Made by a program: the position numbers and the translations under genes. Shown one piece after another: positions 1 through 43,715 of a stretch of 64,000 nucleotides of DNA (within the stretch, counting starts at the first letter, position 1; every line of letters starts with the position of its first letter). The stretch lies in sequence record PZ019086.1. One strand, given 5' to 3'. The notes under the pieces were generated by a model. That model searched no databases, had not been told where the DNA came from, and saw only the letters and a list, made by a program, of their open reading frames with translations. This DNA is from a phage.

Positions 1-1008
1 CTTAATAACTTGGTTGATCGTGGTAAAGTTAAGCGTTATGAAGCTGATTCTGAAATAGCTATCAATAGTCAAACTGGTATTCGTATTAGAAGCAATGGCG
101 ATAAAACTGGTTCTGTTGCTACAATGCTACGAAATGATGGCGGTAGTTTTTATATTCTATTTACAGATAAAAATGCCACCGATGGCGCAGCAACCGTTAA
201 TGGTGATTGGAATAGTAAACGTCCTTTTGCAATTAACTTAACAACTGGCGAAGTGCTAATGAATAACGGCATAGCTGTTCGCAGCGCAGCTTTATTCTAT
301 AATAGTATAAATGTCAAAGATAATGGTTCTATTAACTTTGATAAGTCTGGTGCTAACCCAAGAAATATGAGAATATTTCATGCTGGCGATGCTTCTCGTG
401 GTAACCGTATTGAAATTGCAGATGAAACTAACTATATTGCTTACTTTGAAAAAGCTCCAGGTGGAGCTAACCGCTTTGTAGTAAATAATGCTACTGTAGC
501 TGGTGTTAACCAAATGAATTCATTTGGTATTAATATCAATAACGCACTTGGTGGAAATAGTATAGCATTTGGTGATAATGACACTGGAATTAAACAATCC
601 GGCGACGGACTTCTTGATATTATTACTAACGCCGCACGCCGAATGAGATTCCAGACGGGTGACACTTATTCTGACATGAATATAAATGCTCCAAACGTTT
701 ATATTCGTTCTGATATTCGTTTGAAATCTAATTTCAGACCTATTGAAAATGCTCTTGAAAAGGTTGAACAGCTTGATGGTTTAATCTATGATAAAGCTGA
801 CTATATAGGTGGTGAAATTGTTCAGACTGAAGCGGGTATTGTGGCTCAAACACTACAAGACGTTTTACCAGAAGCAGTTCGTGAAGTTGAAGATATTAAG
901 GGTAATAAAATACTCACTGTTTCTTCTCAATCCCAGATTGCTCTTCTAGTTGAAGCTGTGAAAACACTTTCTTCTCGTGTAAAAGAACTTGAATCTAAAC
1001 TTATGTAA
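1..1008 (+). CDS. 37: Long tail fibre distal subunit gp37, C-terminal part (gene starts upstream of window); last ~100 aa look like an intramolecular-chaperone/autoproteolytic domain
   Basis: Open frame runs from window edge to stop at 1008; repetitive beta-rich fibre-like sequence; C-terminal SDIRLKSNFRPIENALEKVEQLDGLIYDK plus coiled-coil tail resembles fibre C-terminal chaperone domains; sits immediately upstream of gene 38 and t as in T-even phages. Confidence 0.7.
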   Translation, partial: LNNLVDRGKVKRYEADSEIAINSQTGIRIRSNGDKTGSVATMLRNDGGSFYILFTDKNATDGAATVNGDWNSKRPFAINLTTGEVLMNNGIAVRSAALFYNSINVKDNGSINFDKSGANPRNMRIFHAGDASRGNRIEIADETNYIAYFEKAPGGANRFVVNNATVAGVNQMNSFGININNALGGNSIAFGDNDTGIKQSGDGLLDIITNAARRMRFQTGDTYSDMNINAPNVYIRSDIRLKSNFRPIENALEKVEQLDGLIYDKADYIGGEIVQTEAGIVAQTLQDVLPEAVREVEDIKGNKILTVSSQSQIALLVEAVKTLSSRVKELESKLM

Positions 1009-1010
1009 AA

Positions 1011-1026
1011 GAGGGCTTCGGCCCTC
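1011..1026 (+). terminator. Stem-loop (GAGGGC-TTCG-GCCCTC) between genes 37 and 38
   Basis: Perfect 6-bp GC-rich stem with TTCG loop followed by T-rich stretch. Confidence 0.45.
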
Positions 1027-1038
1027 TAAGGATTTTTA

Positions 1039-1824
1039 ATGGCAATTGTAGGTGTTCCTGGCTGGATTGGTGAATCTGCCGTGAATGAAACTGGACAACG
1101 TTGGATGGATGCTGCAATGAAAGCAGTTCGTGTTTCAGTTCCTGGTTGGATGAGCTCAATGGCCGGACAATCTAAAGAAGTATATTACAGCATTGGTGCT
1201 AGCAATTCTTATAATAAAGACACACTAATAAATTGGATAAAAGCCCAAGGAAGTACTCCTGTTGTTATTACAATTACAGGCAATATCGTTTCTTCATCGA
1301 CAGGTCAACCATGCTTAGATTTTCCTAGCTCATTAACTAATGCATACGTGACACTTAATATCAATTCAGGTGTGCATGTTTGGGGTCGCGGCGGGAATGG
1401 TGGAAATAACTCTGCCGGTGGAGCAGGAGGAACTGCAATAAATAACGGAATTGGAACTAGATTACGTATTAACAACAACGGTGTTATCGCAGGCGGTGGC
1501 GGCGGCGGAGGAGGCGGATACTACTCTCCTTTTTCACAAATGAGATTGACTTTTGGCGGAGGAGGCGGGCGTCCATTTGGCGCTGCTGGCGGCTCTGCTA
1601 ATATGGAACGAGGTGCTACCGCTGGTACTATTTCTGCACCCGGTAAAGGGTCTGTAAACGGTGTCTACAATGGCGGAAACGGTGGTGATGCTGGTGCCGC
1701 AGGAGGTAGATGTAATATTCGTGGTCAAGGATCAGAATATAACGGCGGTGCGGCTGGTAAAGCTGTTACTGGTAATGCTCCAACTTGGACTAAAGTTGGT
1801 ACAATATATGGTGCAAGAGTATAA
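1039..1824 (+). CDS. 38: Tail fibre adhesin gp38 (T2-type, glycine-rich motifs separated by variable segments)
   Basis: 261 aa; several Gly-rich blocks (GRGGNGGNNSAGGAGG, a 9-10 residue poly-Gly run followed by YY, FGGGGGRPFGAAGGSA, NGGNGGDAGAAGG); position between 37 and t. Confidence 0.8.
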   Translation: MAIVGVPGWIGESAVNETGQRWMDAAMKAVRVSVPGWMSSMAGQSKEVYYSIGASNSYNKDTLINWIKAQGSTPVVITITGNIVSSSTGQPCLDFPSSLTNAYVTLNINSGVHVWGRGGNGGNNSAGGAGGTAINNGIGTRLRINNNGVIAGGGGGGGGGYYSPFSQMRLTFGGGGGRPFGAAGGSANMERGATAGTISAPGKGSVNGVYNGGNGGDAGAAGGRCNIRGQGSEYNGGAAGKAVTGNAPTWTKVGTIYGARV

Positions 1825-1855
1825 TTTTGAATAAATATCCTTAAAAGGAGGGTCT

Positions 1856-2512
1856 ATGGCAGCACCTAGAATATCATTTTCGCCCTCTGATATTCTGTTG
1901 GGTGTTCTAGATCGCTTGTTCAAAGATAACGCTACCGGGAAGGTTCTTGCTTCCCGGGTAGCTGTCGTAATTCTTTTGTTTATAATGGCGATTGTTTGGT
2001 ATAGGGGAGATAGTTTCTTTGAGTACTATAAGCAATCAAAGTATGAAACATACAGTGAAATTATTGAAAAGGAAAGAAATGCACGCTTTGAATCTGTCGC
2101 CCTGGAACAACTCCAGATAGTTCACATATCATCTGAGGCAGACTTTAGTGCGGTGTATTCTTTCCGCCCTAAAAACTTAAACTATTTTGTTGATATTATA
2201 GCATATGAAGGAAAATTACCTTCAACAATAAGTGAAAAATCACTTGGAGGATATCCTGTTGATAAAACTATGGATGAATATACAGTTCATTTAAATGGAC
2301 GTCATTATTATTCCAACTCAAAATTTGCTTTTTTACCGACTAAAAAGCCTACTCCCGAAATAAATTACATGTACAGTTGTCCATATTTCAATTTGGATAA
2401 TATCTATGCTGGAACAATAACCATGTACTGGTATAGAAATGATCATATAAGTAATGACCGCCTTGAATCAATATGTTCTCAGGCGGCCAGAATATTAGGA
2501 AGGGCTAAATAA
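1856..2512 (+). CDS. t: Holin t
   Basis: 218 aa, single N-terminal TM segment then large periplasmic domain; SD AAGGAGG 5 nt upstream of ATG; T4 holin is 218 aa and follows gene 38. Confidence 0.9.
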   Translation: MAAPRISFSPSDILLGVLDRLFKDNATGKVLASRVAVVILLFIMAIVWYRGDSFFEYYKQSKYETYSEIIEKERNARFESVALEQLQIVHISSEADFSAVYSFRPKNLNYFVDIIAYEGKLPSTISEKSLGGYPVDKTMDEYTVHLNGRHYYSNSKFAFLPTKKPTPEINYMYSCPYFNLDNIYAGTITMYWYRNDHISNDRLESICSQAARILGRAK

Positions 2513-2785
2513 TTATTTGTTTGTATACATTTCTAGATATCGATATACACCCTCAAAACCCTCGTTGAATTCGTCGATGAGGGTTTTCTTATCTTCTTGA
2601 GTTAATTCAGAAACAATTTTACGGAATGAATTCTGATTTAACTTTCTACCTTCATGCGTTACTCCAATCTCATTCAGAAATGCAATAAAATTAGCACGAT
2701 TCTCAACAATATCTTCTCTGGAAAATTTAATCAAAATAGACGCAACAGTAATAATTTCACGAACTGTATCAATGTTTTTATTCAT
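2513..2785 (-). CDS. asiA: Anti-sigma-70 factor AsiA
   Basis: 90 aa, sequence MNKNIDTVREIITVASILIKFSRED... matches remembered T4 AsiA; convergent with t. Confidence 0.9.
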   Translation of the reverse strand: MNKNIDTVREIITVASILIKFSREDIVENRANFIAFLNEIGVTHEGRKLNQNSFRKIVSELTQEDKKTLIDEFNEGFEGVYRYLEMYTNK

Positions 2786-2797
2786 TAACTATACCAC

Positions 2798-2950
2798 TCA
2801 ATTAGTTGACTTTATTATAATATCATCAGACACTTGATTTGTAAACTGGTCTGTGTTATTTTCTTCAAAAATTTTTTCTACGAATTCTTTGAACGACTCA
2901 CGTTCCTGAGCTACATTATGCTCGATTACCTTTTCAAGATTATGACTCAT
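2798..2950 (-). CDS. Small acidic ORF (50 aa), not in ORF track; ATGA overlap with arn stop
   Basis: Manual translation MSHNLEKVIEHNVAQERESFKEF...; start overlaps upstream stop (translational coupling pattern). Confidence 0.3.
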   Translation of the reverse strand: MSHNLEKVIEHNVAQERESFKEFVEKIFEENNTDQFTNQVSDDIIIKSTN

Positions 2951-3225
2951 TCGAAATAATCTTCAATTTCGTAATCATGGACATAAAACATTATAGTTTT
3001 TAATACATCATCAATACTTTTTCCTGGAGCTGGAATTACGTAAAAATATCCTGCTTTTGAGAGGTCTTTATAAGTTCCAACCAAGAAATCATTATTCTCG
3101 AGATGCAATTCTTCAACTAATTCATTAACAATTGAATGGTATAAATTTGGTAGAAACTTATATAGCTTTTCTAGAATATCAATTTTGATTGTGTATTGAA
3201 CCACAGACTGAGAATCAATAATCAT
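2947..3225 (-). CDS. arn: Anti-restriction nuclease protein Arn (acidic DNA-mimic type)
   Basis: 92 aa acidic protein at the T4 arn position and length. Confidence 0.6.
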   Translation of the reverse strand: MIIDSQSVVQYTIKIDILEKLYKFLPNLYHSIVNELVEELHLENNDFLVGTYKDLSKAGYFYVIPAPGKSIDDVLKTIMFYVHDYEIEDYFE

Positions 3226-3308
3226 AGACCTTCCCCTTATGTTTCTGTTTGCGATTAGATTCTTTAAACGCTTTCTTTTTATCTTTATGGACAGAAGCTT
3301 TATTAAAA

Positions 3309-3527
3309 TTATGTTTTGCGACTAAATTGTTCATAGTGCTGAATTACCTCTCTTAAACATTTGCATGTGAATGAAAACTTTTTAGCTACACCACATTCAA
3401 ATATATGTTCTCTTAAATCACGTGTATCAGTATATCCCATCTCAACGATAAAATGCCGTATTAGATTTTTATCTTTATCATTGAGAGAATTAAAATAATC
3501 GGATTTTGAATTAATTTCCCTGGCCAA
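3309..3527 (-). CDS. Hypothetical early protein (72 aa)
   Basis: ORF in co-directional early cluster between arn and motA. Confidence 0.4.
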   Translation of the reverse strand: MAREINSKSDYFNSLNDKDKNLIRHFIVEMGYTDTRDLREHIFECGVAKKFSFTCKCLREVIQHYEQFSRKT

Positions 3528-3807
3528 ATTGAATCACCTTCAGTTGACGTTTTAGTTCTTTTATCATTTCTTCGTTCATCGCAATATAAAGATCGCGTAA
3601 AGCAGGCTTTAGCATTCCATTTATTGGGGAACTAAATGGACATACATAATCTTTTCCTACGAGCTTTTTAGTGAATTCCATATCGCAGAACTTAAATCCC
3701 GGTTCATTGGCATAAATTCCCCAATTAGTTGACATCATTTTATTGGCATATTCCAGTGCCTGGATTTGATTCATAATTCCATCAATTTGAAACTTTTTAA
3801 TATTCAT
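3511..3807 (-). CDS. Hypothetical early protein (98 aa)
   Basis: ORF with ATGA-type overlap to neighbour. Confidence 0.4.
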   Translation of the reverse strand: MNIKKFQIDGIMNQIQALEYANKMMSTNWGIYANEPGFKFCDMEFTKKLVGKDYVCPFSSPINGMLKPALRDLYIAMNEEMIKELKRQLKVIQFGQGN

Positions 3808-4268
3808 TAGTAAAGGTCCTCAGAGTAAAGTTCTTTTTCACTACCACCGCGTTCAATACGTACTTGTCCAGCATAAGTTGCAATAATCATTGCTTCTTCA
3901 CGTGTCCAATAATTACTATATTGGTCAATAAACCCTTGATCATCATCACAAACTTGCTGAGTAACTAATTGAGGTTTAACTACATCTAAAACTTCTGCCA
4001 TATCTTTAGAATAATGACGAGCACCTGGAATAACAAGAGTTCGTCCATCTTTTAATTTAAAACGGTTGGCTGCGCAAACAATTCGTCGTTGATACTTTTG
4101 GTTTTCGTCCCAATACGCAGTTTGCCAACAGATTTCAGGAACTTCTTTCAGAATATCTTCTTCTGTGCATTTATAACCATGCGCTTTAAATTTTTCAACA
4201 AGACTTTCTGGAGTTTCACGAGATAAAGGAACATTCAGCATTTTTAAACGATTAATAAATGGGTTCAT
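3807..4268 (-). CDS. Hypothetical early protein (153 aa)
   Basis: ORF in co-directional array, overlapping stop/start with neighbours. Confidence 0.45.
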
Positions 4269-40675: not shown

Positions 40676-41065
40676 TTAACGATTAAAATCAGCAGCAATT
40701 GTTTCAGCAACAATTTGAGCAGCAACAATTAGACGTTCATCTGCATTACCGCAATAATCATCTTCAAGGCGCTCACCACATGAAGTCATAATAAATTTGG
40801 CACCAGCATTTAGAGATTCTGCTGTATGTTTGCGCATCAGTTCAATCCATTTATTACTTACTTCACGATCGATAGCTTCATAATACGCATGACGAGCAGG
40901 TGCAGATTTAATTTTGCTCTGAATAACTTCCATCGCATTATCAGAAAGAGACAAAACCCATGCTCGACGAATTTTATTTTGGTTTTGTGGATTTGATTCA
41001 GAACGCACGTGTTTTGGCTGAATATCTTTTACATCAACAGTATAATTCACCGTAATTTTAGTCAT
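40676..41065 (-). CDS. rpbA: RNA polymerase binding protein RpbA
   Basis: 129 aa as T4 RpbA, adjacent to gene 45. Confidence 0.6.
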
Positions 41066-41276: not shown

Positions 41277-41284
41277 TATAAATA
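41277..41284 (+). promoter_or_regulatory. Late promoter box TATAAATA (plus strand) upstream of the HNH endonuclease gene
   Basis: Exact TATAAATA 33 nt upstream of ATG at 41318. Confidence 0.55.
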
Positions 41285-41317: not shown

Positions 41318-42034
41318 ATGAATTATAAACTAATTTATGAAAAGTTAATCTCTAATGCTAAATCTCGAAAACTTGATTGCTATACTGAATCTCATCACAT
41401 TATACCACGCTGTTTAAATGGTAGCGATGATGCTTCAAACTTAGTAGATTTAACACCAGAAGAGCACTATGTAGCTCATCAACTTTTAGTAAAAATTTAT
41501 CCTTCTGAACCAAAATTAGTCTATGCTGCTAACATGATGACAGTTTCTACGAAATACGCTAAACGTAATAATAAAACTTTCGGCTGGATTCGTCGTAAAC
41601 TCTGGGAAATAGAAAAGAATAAAGAGTTCTCCCAAGAGACACGAAAGAAAATGTCCGATGCAGTAGCTAATAAAGCAAGACTAACTTGTCCACATTGCGG
41701 TAAGTCTGGATTAAGCGGGAATATGAATCGATGGCATTTTGATAACTGCCCAAATCACCCCAATCCTAAAGTTAGACCGCCAATGTCTAAAGAACACAGA
41801 AATAATATCTCAAACGGGCTTAAAGCAATCGTTCTTGAAGAAACAACCTGCGAATTCTGCGGAATGATAGGCAAGAAATGCGTTATCGCAGCGCATAGAA
41901 ATTTCTGCAAGAAAAATCCAAATGGACGCAAGAAAACTGAAAAGACTGGTACTTGCGTCCATTGTGGTAAAGTTACCACTTTCGGAAATTTATCAAGATG
42001 GCATAATGATAATTGTAAATATAAACCTAGCTAA
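41318..42034 (+). mobile_element. Free-standing HNH homing endonuclease gene with three C-terminal Cys/His zinc-finger-like repeats
   Basis: 238 aa; HNH motif ESHHIIPRCLNGSDDASNLVDLTPEEHYVAH; repeats CPHCGK...RWHFDNC, CEFCG...HRNFC, CVHCGK...RWHNDNC; opposite strand to all neighbours; 3' end overlaps gene 46 stop by 8 bp. Confidence 0.75.
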
Positions 42035-43715
42035 TCTTAGCTAAACTAAATCTACCAACTTTTTCCATTTGAATGTGCTGACCATATTCCTGTGGGTCAT
42101 GGTCTTTATGCGAAATTATGAAGAAGTTGGTATCCTTCAAACCATCTAAAATTTTAGCCACATTTTTAATACCTTCAGCATCAAATGCACCGTCATATAC
42201 TTCATCAAGAAATAAACAACTTATTTTAACACCTGAAACTTTTTCAGCAATATCACGCCAAGTAAATAAAAGAGCAATATCAATTCGCGCTTTTTCACCT
42301 TGACTAAATGAAGCATAACTAAAATCTTCACGACCACGGGATTTAATTGTCTCATTAAATTCTTCATCTAATGTAAACACATAATCCGCTTCCATTATTT
42401 TAAGATAATGGTTAATCTGCTTATTAAATAATGGAATGTACTTTTTAATAATAGCACCTTTAATACCAGAATCTTTGAGCATATCAGTCAAAATTCCTCT
42501 ATGGTATTTTTCCATTACTAAATTAGTTTTTGTCTTAACAATTTTATCAAGTTCTTCTTGAAGCAGTGCTATTTCATCAGCATGATCAATAAACTCAGAT
42601 GATGCTTTTTCTATAGCCGCTTTAACCTTTTTAGCTTTATCTACCGTCGTGATTAGAGATTGCTTTTTATTGCGAATATCATTCGCCAACGTCTGCTGGG
42701 TTTTAATATTATCTCGGTATTCATCAACAAGAACTTTTAAATTATCACGATGTGTTGAAAGCTGTTCAAATGAATGCGTGCATTCAGAAACTTTATCTTT
42801 AATTTTAGAAACAACTTTATCACCGGAACTTAATTGTGACAAACAGGTTGGACATAATCCACCTTCGTGATACATATTAATGACTTTATTATACGAGTCA
42901 ATTTTTGATTTAATTAAAAATGCTTCTTGACCGATTTTATCAAATGCATCAGTCGGGTCTTCATCCAAAACAATATTAACTAATCTTTCATTAGCTTCTT
43001 CTATTTCCGATTTTAACGTTCTAGCTTCTTTTGCCAAATCATCATACATATTCTGCAGACGAGTAAGGTTATCACCAGTTAATTTTTTCTGGCGTTCAAC
43101 GTTATCATTATATATTTTAATTTGTTGGATAATACTATCTTTTTTAACATCAAGCACTTGGTTTTGTGAATTTAATTCACGTATTAGTGCTTTATTAAGC
43201 TTATCCATTTCAGCTAATGTTCCTACCTCAAGCAGGTCTTCCACAAGCTTTCTTCGCGCAGGGGTCGACAAACCCATGAAAGGGGTATACCCTGCTGTAC
43301 CAAGGACAACAATCTGCTTGAAACTGGCATATGACATTCCGATAAGCTGTTCAAATTCTGCTTGGAAATCTTTACTGCTGGCAGATTCATTAAGACGTGT
43401 ACCGTTAACGGTGATTTCGAAAACGTTTGGTTTTTGTCCTCTTTTGATATAGTACTTTTTCTCATCATATTCCATCCACAGTTCAACTAAAAGTTCTTTC
43501 TTATTTGTGCTGTTTATTAATTGGCCTTTCTTTACATCACGGAATGGCTTGCCAAAAAGCCCAAATGTGATGGCTTCTAACATAGTAGACTTACCACCAC
43601 CATTTCGCCCAGTAATAAGAGTTTTTTGAACCTTATCTAATTGAATGTCAACTCCATTTTGACCAACTGACATTATATTTTTATATTTTACTCTATTAAG
43701 TTTAAATGATTTCAT
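42027..43715 (-). CDS. 46: Recombination exonuclease subunit gp46 (SbcC/Rad50-like)
   Basis: 562 aa (T4 560); Walker A GRNGGGKST, long coiled coil, C-terminal ABC signature region. Confidence 0.9.
   Translation of the reverse strand: MKSFKLNRVKYKNIMSVGQNGVDIQLDKVQKTLITGRNGGGKSTMLEAITFGLFGKPFRDVKKGQLINSTNKKELLVELWMEYDEKKYYIKRGQKPNVFEITVNGTRLNESASSKDFQAEFEQLIGMSYASFKQIVVLGTAGYTPFMGLSTPARRKLVEDLLEVGTLAEMDKLNKALIRELNSQNQVLDVKKDSIIQQIKIYNDNVERQKKLTGDNLTRLQNMYDDLAKEARTLKSEIEEANERLVNIVLDEDPTDAFDKIGQEAFLIKSKIDSYNKVINMYHEGGLCPTCLSQLSSGDKVVSKIKDKVSECTHSFEQLSTHRDNLKVLVDEYRDNIKTQQTLANDIRNKKQSLITTVDKAKKVKAAIEKASSEFIDHADEIALLQEELDKIVKTKTNLVMEKYHRGILTDMLKDSGIKGAIIKKYIPLFNKQINHYLKIMEADYVFTLDEEFNETIKSRGREDFSYASFSQGEKARIDIALLFTWRDIAEKVSGVKISCLFLDEVYDGAFDAEGIKNVAKILDGLKDTNFFIISHKDHDPQEYGQHIQMEKVGRFSLAKIS

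Follow-up and report, generated by a model that had tools for sequence, protein, structure and literature searches.

The stretch of phage DNA analysed here (64,000 nucleotides of sequence record PZ019086.1, hereafter the window) opens with a locus that is very probably a distal module for receptor recognition from the long tail fibre of a Tequatrovirus, of the kind known from T2, T6, and S16. The reading includes a gp37 that would process its own C-terminus, a gp38 that would dock on the tip thus exposed, a mosaic of T2- and T6-type parts, and the nucleoside channel Tsx as receptor. The window is a Tequatrovirus genome, with approximately 95% nucleotide identity to many Escherichia coli and Shigella phages. 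The gene order g37-g38-t-asiA is fixed by the holin gene t and is the same in T2, T4, T6, Bas39, and JK38. The module is ordinary and well studied, and nothing at the locus is new. By comparative analysis we infer the cleavage of gp37, the presence of gp38 in the virion, its stoichiometry, and the receptor. The coordinates of the features are collected in the table below; those given in the first-pass annotation proved exact, and the E-values of the family matches lie far beyond chance.

Features of the receptor-recognition module and its surroundings, in window coordinates
Feature	Position (nt)	Strand	Residues	Basis or remark
gp37, C-terminal part of the mature fibre	1..708	+		PHROG 1699; alignment to 6F45_A
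gp37, intramolecular chaperone of the Peptidase S74 type	709..1008	+		PF13884; 99 residues plus stop codon
Predicted nucleophile	709-711	+	Ser237 (gp37 fragment)	S74 dyad
Predicted base	724-726	+	Lys242 (gp37 fragment)	S74 dyad
C(UUCG)G-type hairpin AGAGGGCTTCGGCCCTCT	1010..1027	+		Lies after the g37 stop and before the g38 ribosome-binding site; terminator-like scan
g38 ribosome-binding site AAGGA	1028-1032	+		3' of the hairpin
gp38, N-terminal attachment domain	1039..1173	+	1-45	PF21721
gp38, linker and N-terminal part of the central beta-helix	1174..1383	+	46-115	Alignment to 6F45_D
gp38, glycine-rich specificity domain	1384..1773	+	116-245	Glycine motifs alternating with hypervariable segments
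HVS1		+	123-151	Assigned after Trojet 2011
HVS2 (YYSPFSQMRLTF)	1519-1554	+	161-172	Assigned after Trojet 2011
HVS3	1594-1671	+	186-211	Assigned after Trojet 2011
HVS4	1687-1743	+	217-235	Assigned after Trojet 2011
gp38, conserved C-terminal strand (NAPTWTKVGTIYGARV) closing the beta-helix, and stop	1774..1824	+		Aligns with the ends of 6F45_D and 9V85
Holin gene t	1856..2512	+		PF11031 (E 8e-118); adjoins g38 downstream

An open frame (frame 1) extends from base 1 to the TAA at 1006-1008 and encodes the last 335 residues of gp37, the 5' part of the gene being cut off by the window start. This fragment matches the long-tail-fibre distal subunit (PHROG 1699, E 1e-65), and its residues 179-333 align with S16 gp37 in the structure 6F45_A (E 9e-10), the alignment spanning the cleavage motif. 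Residues 237-294 match Peptidase_S74 ('chaperone of endosialidase', PF13884) with E 3e-14 and 53.5 bits at a cut-off of 22 bits, over profile positions 1-58 of 58. A Ser-Lys dyad with i/i+5 spacing (S237 and K242, within SDIRLK) stands at the start of the domain, and GIVAQ at residues 279-283 corresponds to the G(V/I)(I/V)AQ trimerisation motif; the roles of the dyad and of the GVIAQ motif have been described for S74 chaperones (PMC3742440). The motif YIRSDxRLK is unchanged across the window, Bas39, T6, and T2, as are the dyad and GIVAQ positions. Moreover, NVYIR/SDIRLK of the window aligns with the S16 gp37 site DLNVS^SDRRIKK, for which cleavage and release of the chaperone are stated in PMC7917993. 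The same paper aligns DVYIR^SDGRLKI, with the same Arg-Ser site, as a prediction for the authors' own T4-like phages, and autoproteolytic release of the gp37 chaperone in T2 and T6 is given in PMC3157838.

The first-pass annotation had likened the gp37 C-terminus to fibre chaperone domains that are cleaved after folding, a likeness upheld by the S74 match, the dyad, GIVAQ, and the alignment to the S16 site. These features support assignment of the C-terminus to the family of self-cleaving intramolecular chaperones, with a predicted autocleavage between Arg236 and Ser237, i.e., between bases 708 and 709, that would free 99 residues. It might be argued that the domain is a degenerate relic, left uncleaved and kept in the mature fibre, as its 99 residues are fewer than the 113 of the S16 chaperone. 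Two observations make this very improbable. Firstly, the dyad, GIVAQ, and YIRSDxRLK are conserved in T2, T6, Bas39, and the window despite a domain identity of 42% between T6 and the window (identity to T2 is 87%). Secondly, according to the S16 model (PMC7917993), a retained domain would block the docking of gp38 on the tip. With a functional chaperone, gp37 would fold and trimerise aided by its own 99 C-terminal residues; after trimer formation, Ser237/Lys242 would cut the Arg236-Ser237 bond, and the chaperone would depart and leave a flat trimeric tip exposed. The new end of the mature protein, ...NINAPNVYIR, is the predicted docking surface for gp38, and the ten residues before the predicted cut match T2 and Bas39 with 100% identity.

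The gp38 reading frame runs from the ATG at 1039 to the TAA at 1822-1824 and encodes 261 residues. Its product belongs to the GP38 adhesin family (PF05268, E 4e-71, 239.7 bits) and carries the Gp38_N domain (PF21721, E 7e-18, 64.8 bits), the cut-off being 25 bits in both cases; it also matches PHROG 2056, 'tail fiber protein; host specificity', with E 7e-104. Two adhesin structures were retrieved, i.e., the crystal structure of S16 gp38 (6F45_D), matched full length over residues 8-259 with E 9e-49, and the receptor-binding domain of PP01 gp38 (9V85), matched over residues 39-261 with E 8e-32. A T4-type arrangement, in which gp38 would be only an assembly chaperone missing from the virion and receptor binding would fall to the gp37 C-terminus, can appeal to the slot of the gene (g37-g38-t), which is that of T4 gene 38, and to several database records that name homologues 'distal long tail fiber assembly catalyst'. 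These labels, however, are inherited T4 names, and even the T4 RefSeq note describes the gp38 of the T2 subfamily as unrelated. The protein of the window matches adhesin families and two solved adhesins, those of S16 and PP01. A T4-type distal tip is further contradicted by BLASTP, with E 19 for T4 gp38 and a best E of 0.11 for T4 gp37. A PDB search with the gp37 fragment did not find the T4 gp37 tip and returned only S16 gp37. We consider the T4-type arrangement hardly conceivable. The earlier assignment of gp38 to the T2-type adhesins rather than the T4-type chaperones thus holds, by PF05268/PF21721, 6F45_D, and the T4 comparison.

Within the adhesin, W9, W22, and W37 of the attachment domain are invariant in eight adhesins and aligned with the S16 tryptophans, whose docking role, plugging into gp37, is described in PMC6851490. 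At the other end of the protein, P248, W250, G254, I256, Y257, and G258 are invariant in the same alignment. A single-sequence AlphaFold2 model of gp38 has a mean pLDDT of 29.7 and a pTM of 0.26, too low to be of use, and the polyglycine type II sandwich fold is proposed here solely through sequence homology to 6F45. By the same homology, a single gp38 monomer is expected to cap the gp37 trimer. This monomer would dock on the gp37 tip via W9, W22, and W37 of its N-terminal helical domain, the remainder would form a beta-helix, two loops of which continue as a polyglycine type II sandwich made up of the glycine-rich motifs, and the hypervariable segments would be the distal loops contacting the outer-membrane protein.

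Glycines account for 60 of the 261 residues of gp38 and for 47 of the 130 residues of the specificity domain. They form two runs (G152-G160 and G173-G177) and GG pairs at 118, 121, 127, 130, 184, 212, 215, 222, and 236. The longer run aligns with helix 3 of S16 (GGGGGGGG; helix according to PMC6851490). The alignment of eight adhesins shows no change in the glycine motifs, whereas the segments separating them vary; the boundaries of the hypervariable segments (HVS) are our own assignment, made after Trojet 2011. That such segments carry specificity is established (PMC3157838, PMC12032242, bioRxiv 10.64898/2026.04.02.716166). Both the architecture of multiple glycine-rich motifs split by variable segments and the role of these segments in host specificity had been anticipated in the first-pass annotation: the former is confirmed by the alignment and the glycine map, and the latter agrees with the literature and with the panel of adhesins of reported receptor. 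Alignment to gp37/gp38 of T2 and T6, which it had also proposed, gave a T2-like attachment half and a T6-like specificity half pointing to Tsx.

Judged by sequence, the module combines parts of two subtypes in a natural mosaic. Its T2-subtype parts are the tip of gp37, the chaperone, and the attachment domain of gp38; HVS 2-4 belong to the T6 subtype. Identity of gp38 residues 1-45 is 95.6% to T2 and 66.7% to T6, and that of residues 46-115 is 62.9% and 32.9%, respectively. In residues 161-245, which hold HVS2-4, the window has 82% identity to T6 at equal length and with no indels, versus about 41% identity to T2, with indels. Pairing of gp37 and gp38 subtypes in a lock-and-key manner has been described (PMC3157838), and the T2 subtype of both the chaperone and gp38 residues 1-45 is consistent with it. 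The combination of a T2-type attachment half with a T6-type specificity half is a further natural example of a known modular exchange.

The predicted primary receptor is Tsx. Overall, gp38 is 96.9% identical (253/261) to the gp38 of Escherichia phage FriedrichMiescher (Bas39, MZ501066) and of Shigella phage JK38 (MK962755), which are identical to each other. Bas39 is listed as Tsx-dependent (BASEL supplementary table 5), and a phage named JK38, equated with GenBank MK962755 only on the basis of its name, is given as Tsx/Kdo by RB-TnSeq in a preprint; Tsx is therefore predicted for the window. The eight substitutions relative to Bas39/JK38 are K28, S86, Q90, R169, R191, V209, R224, and A259, four of which (R169, R191, V209, R224) fall within the specificity domain, R169 and R224 being the T6 state. 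In residues 161-245, identity is 95% to Bas39/JK38, 82-85% to T6 and Bas35 (Tsx), 65% to Bas45 (OmpA), and 40-42% to T2 and Bas38 (OmpF). For HVS2, identity is 100% to Tsx-dependent Bas35 and 92% to T6, and OmpA-dependent Bas45 has a 5-residue deletion in this segment. Nearly all Tsx-recognising adhesins have one common HVS set (Trojet et al.). On the other hand, Bas43 depends on Tsx although its segments differ appreciably (identities of 38-54% for the individual HVS), and hence the mapping of HVS to receptor is not one-to-one. In RB68, a single Q206L change turns OmpF into OmpW specificity, and PST gains recognition of OmpA with few HVS2/3 residue differences from T6; very few residues can thus suffice to make a sequence-based receptor call wrong.

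These cases bear on the possibility that the architecture is the same but that residues of the HVS specific to the window direct the phage to a receptor other than, or besides, Tsx, e.g., OmpA or an outer-membrane protein of Yersinia or Shigella. RB68 and PST demonstrate that few or single HVS substitutions can switch or broaden specificity, the gp38 of OmpA-dependent Bas45 has identities of 86% overall and 65% in residues 161-245, and R191 and V209 are absent from Bas39, JK38, NR1, and T6. Yet the differences within the specificity domain are all conservative or in the T6 state (R/K 169, R/Q 191, V/I 209, R/K 224), V209 is present in Tsx-dependent Bas43 too, HVS2 is the same as in Tsx-dependent Bas35, and the window lacks a deletion of the Bas45 type. 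We consider such a receptor unlikely. A related proposal is that two window-specific residues, R191 and V209, could act with R169 and R224 (both in the T6 state) on a scaffold of the JK38/Bas39 type to redirect or widen receptor use to targets other than Tsx, e.g., OmpA or a Shigella/Yersinia porin variant. We hold this to be distinctly improbable; if true, the allele would represent a natural host-range change by very few substitutions. The annotation allows Tsx to be predicted from sequence as the primary receptor; its practical value is limited, and the prediction would help in the design of phage cocktails and in anticipating resistance through loss of tsx.

The hairpin between g37 and g38 folds at -13.4 kcal/mol (z -1.85), i.e., it is marginally above shuffled sequences in stability. 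The same hairpin position is annotated 'terminator' in phage NR1; here, it is listed as a feature and not as a proven terminator. No TATAAATA late-promoter box was found near g38 or t within positions 1-3000, and the three boxes in the whole window are below the shuffle mean; the promoter of g38 is presumably located 5' of the window start. In positions 1-3000, the number of sigma-70-like sites (15) shows no enrichment over shuffles (10.5 ± 3.3) and is uninformative for late genes. Neither Rfam at gathering thresholds nor a tRNA scan identified RNA genes in the whole window. The glycine codons of gp38 account for the GC peak of 0.449 in positions 1001-2000, and a foreign origin was rejected as its cause.

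Several known systems resemble the module, and the locus makes no open question testable beyond what T2, T6, S16, PP01, JK38, and the BASEL phages already offer. One likeness is to the C-terminal intramolecular chaperones of the K1F endosialidase and the GA-1 neck appendage (MEROPS S74), which share the Pfam family, the i/i+5 Ser-Lys dyad, and the G(V/I)(I/V)AQ motif, the chaperone being likewise C-terminal on a trimeric fibre. The passenger here is a T-even fibre tip and not a tailspike enzyme, and the kinship is at the domain level only. The S16 gp37(3)-gp38 complex (PDB 6F45), an OmpC adhesin, resembles the module in its three tryptophans, its long polyglycine helix, and the presence of both a cleavage motif and a chaperone, but differs in its more distant sequence, its genus, its loops, and its receptor. 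T2, whose gp37/gp38 form a FadL/OmpF adhesin and the classical case of gp37 C-terminal processing, has the gp37 tip, the chaperone, and the attachment domain in common with the window, and differs in the hypervariable segments and the receptor. Conversely, the Tsx adhesin of T6 shares the HVS 2-4 set, whereas T6 gp37 has another tip and another chaperone. JK38 and Bas39 have the gene order of the window; in the last 335 residues of gp37, JK38 differs at only 10 positions, and Bas39 gp37 differs in the 20 residues lying approximately 10-30 residues upstream of the predicted cleavage site.

Several Tequatrovirus genomes are 94–96% identical to bases 1–25000, and hence the window represents an ordinary T-even genome. 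Bases 1–2600 matched 530 phage records, nearly all of them Tequatrovirus of E. coli, Shigella, or Yersinia, and showed 95% DNA identity to Shigella phage JK38 in the nucleotide search. The first two ORFs were assigned to gp37 (PHROG 1699, E 1e-65) and the gp38 adhesin (PF05268, E 4e-71; PF21721, E 7e-18; PHROG 2056, E 7e-104). The first-pass annotation had placed a gp37/gp38 module at 1–1824, and the ORF ends fit these limits exactly.

Features of the gp37/gp38 locus and of other loci in the window
Feature	Position	Strand	Remarks
gp37 C-terminal part, long tail fibre distal subunit	1–1008 (TAA 1006–1008)	+	frame 1, open from base 1; 335 residues
C(UUCG)G tetraloop hairpin AGAGGGCTTCGGCCCTCT	1010–1027	+	fold -13.4 kcal/mol; between g37 stop and g38 ribosome-binding site
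g38 ribosome-binding site AAGGA	1028–1032		directly adjoins the hairpin
gp38 adhesin	ATG 1039 to TAA 1822–1824	+	ORF, 261 residues
T holin	1856–2512	+	next gene downstream of gp38
asiA	2513–2785	-	ORF after T holin, opposite strand
Terminator-like hairpin, strong	2555–2587	+	14 pairs; inside convergent asiA, just downstream of holin gene
Three small ORFs	3309–4268	-	72, 98, 153 aa; arn-motA interval
rpbA	40676–41065		
Late-promoter box TATAAATA	41277–41284	+	34 nt upstream of homing endonuclease ORF
Homing endonuclease ORF, free-standing	41318–42034	+	238 aa; between rpbA and gene 46
Gene 46	42027–43715		

Gp38 had been described as a T2-type adhesin with glycine-rich motifs separated by variable segments, rather than a T4-type chaperone, and both parts of this description hold. 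Similarity to T4 was lacking in BLASTP for gp38 (E 19 to the T4 gp38 chaperone) and for the gp37 fragment (best E 0.11 to T4 gp37), so that a T4-type tip fails as an alternative. The T2-type assignment is further upheld by structure matches: the adhesin of Salmonella phage S16 (6F45_D) aligns with the entire gp38 (E 9e-49), and the PP01 gp38 receptor-binding domain (9V85) also matches it (E 8e-32). Three tryptophans dock S16 gp38 into gp37 (PMC6851490); their counterparts, W9, W22, and W37, are invariant in all eight adhesins aligned. These eight sequences share unchanged glycine motifs, and the intervening segments vary, indels included. Glycine constitutes 23% of gp38 and 36% of residues 116–245, with a nine-glycine run (152–160) aligned to the S16 polyglycine helix 3. 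All features of the gp38 adhesin family that can be tested by sequence were found. We infer a polyglycine-sandwich fold from two crystal structures to which gp38 is strongly homologous; the single-sequence AlphaFold2 model, with a pLDDT of 29.7, gave no independent confirmation. The GC content peaks at 0.449 in bases 1001–2000 (about 0.35 elsewhere) with a positive GC skew, since the gp38 glycine codons are GGN.

The gp37 end, earlier noted to resemble an intramolecular chaperone, indeed carries every sequence-testable feature of an S74 chaperone. Peptidase_S74 (Pfam, "chaperone of endosialidase") covers fragment residues 237–294 over the full profile (E 3e-14). The domain opens with S237-D-I-R-L-K242, a Ser-Lys dyad at i/i+5, and contains GIVAQ (279–283), the counterpart of the GVIAQ trimerisation motif; in this domain family, the dyad is needed for autocleavage (PMC3742440). 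S16 gp37 (6F45_A) aligns with the fragment across the cleavage motif (E 9e-10). Autocleavage of S16 gp37 at DLNVS^SDRRIKK frees 113 residues and bares the gp38 docking surface, and DVYIR^SDGRLKI of other T4-like phages has been aligned to this site (PMC7917993). In the window, the aligned site reads NVYIR^SDIRLK, and the predicted cut, between bases 708 and 709, would free 99 residues (~10.9 kDa), compared with 113 in S16. The motif YIRSDxRLK is unchanged in the window, Bas39 (phage FriedrichMiescher, MZ501066), T2, and T6, although T6 retains only 42% identity over the domain. Only 10 of 335 fragment residues differ from JK38 gp37. The latter is annotated in MK962755 (1–4169) as two overlapping CDS, 1–2398 and 2385–4169, a split suggestive of a frameshift or a sequencing error in this entry.

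No late-promoter box TATAAATA was found within 1–3000; transcription of g38 probably begins upstream of the window start. Phage NR1 carries a terminator annotation at the site equivalent to the 1010–1027 hairpin; since the hairpin has the g38 ribosome-binding site in its U-rich tail, we read it as transcript-stabilising or attenuating, not as a full stop. NR1 also has an annotated terminator at the place equivalent to 2555–2587.

One of the three late-promoter boxes in the window precedes the homing endonuclease ORF (PHROG 655, E 1e-68; weak Pfam HNH, E 0.007), the sole non-overlapping plus-strand ORF in a long run of minus-strand early genes. Coverage of this stretch is 80% or more in only about 60 of the 505 Tequatrovirus records that match, which indicates a variably present mobile gene. 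The small ORFs of the arn-motA interval, without Pfam match, correspond to poorly characterised arn.x genes, hypothetical in T2, T6, and BASEL phages. The 64-kb window contained no tRNA genes in the tRNA scan and no Rfam families at the gathering threshold.

Comparison with T2 and T6, proposed in the first-pass annotation, revealed a mosaic of T2-like attachment and T6-like hypervariable segments (HVS) 2–4. Identity to T2 versus T6 is 100% versus 50% for the last 10 gp37 residues before the cut, 87% versus 42% for the gp37 chaperone, and 95.6% versus 66.7% for the gp38 attachment domain (1–45), compared with 41% versus 82% for gp38 residues 161–245 (HVS2–4). Gp37 and gp38 subtypes pair lock-and-key (Trojet et al., PMC3157838), and PP01 gp38 functions on T2 gp37 only if it carries the T2 N-terminal 113 residues. 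The pairing of a T2-type gp37 tip with a T2-type gp38 N-terminus fits both observations; such exchange of modules is already known from this family.

Given this architecture, the receptor is best predicted, with high confidence, to be Tsx, because of the near-identity of gp38 to that of Bas39 and JK38 and the HVS2 match to Tsx-dependent phages. Bas39 and JK38 gp38 are identical to each other and differ from the window protein at 8 of 261 positions. The BASEL supplementary table lists Tsx as the primary receptor of Bas39, and in RB-TnSeq screens a phage named JK38, equated with the GenBank JK38 by name only, has a Tsx/Kdo phenotype. Within a small panel of adhesins from phages whose receptors are published, the window's HVS2 shares 100% identity with Tsx-dependent Bas35 and 92% with T6, as opposed to 17% with Bas45, an OmpA-dependent phage in which 5 residues of this segment are deleted, and 0–8% with T2 and OmpF-dependent Bas38. 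The specificity domain holds four of the differences from Bas39/JK38: R169 and R224 represent the T6 state, V209 is shared with Tsx-dependent Bas43, and only R191 has no counterpart within the panel. Three caveats apply. One substitution can switch the receptor in this family, e.g., Q206L in RB68 (OmpF to OmpW); PST, with few changes relative to T6, gains OmpA recognition (PMC3157838); and Tsx is also used by Bas43, whose loops are rather different.

Phages already sequenced, some with experimental characterisation, carry alleles 97–98% identical to this module. The gp37/gp38 finding is correct and already known, and what is added to these known systems is only Tsx as the predicted receptor and the mosaic of T2 and T6 parts.
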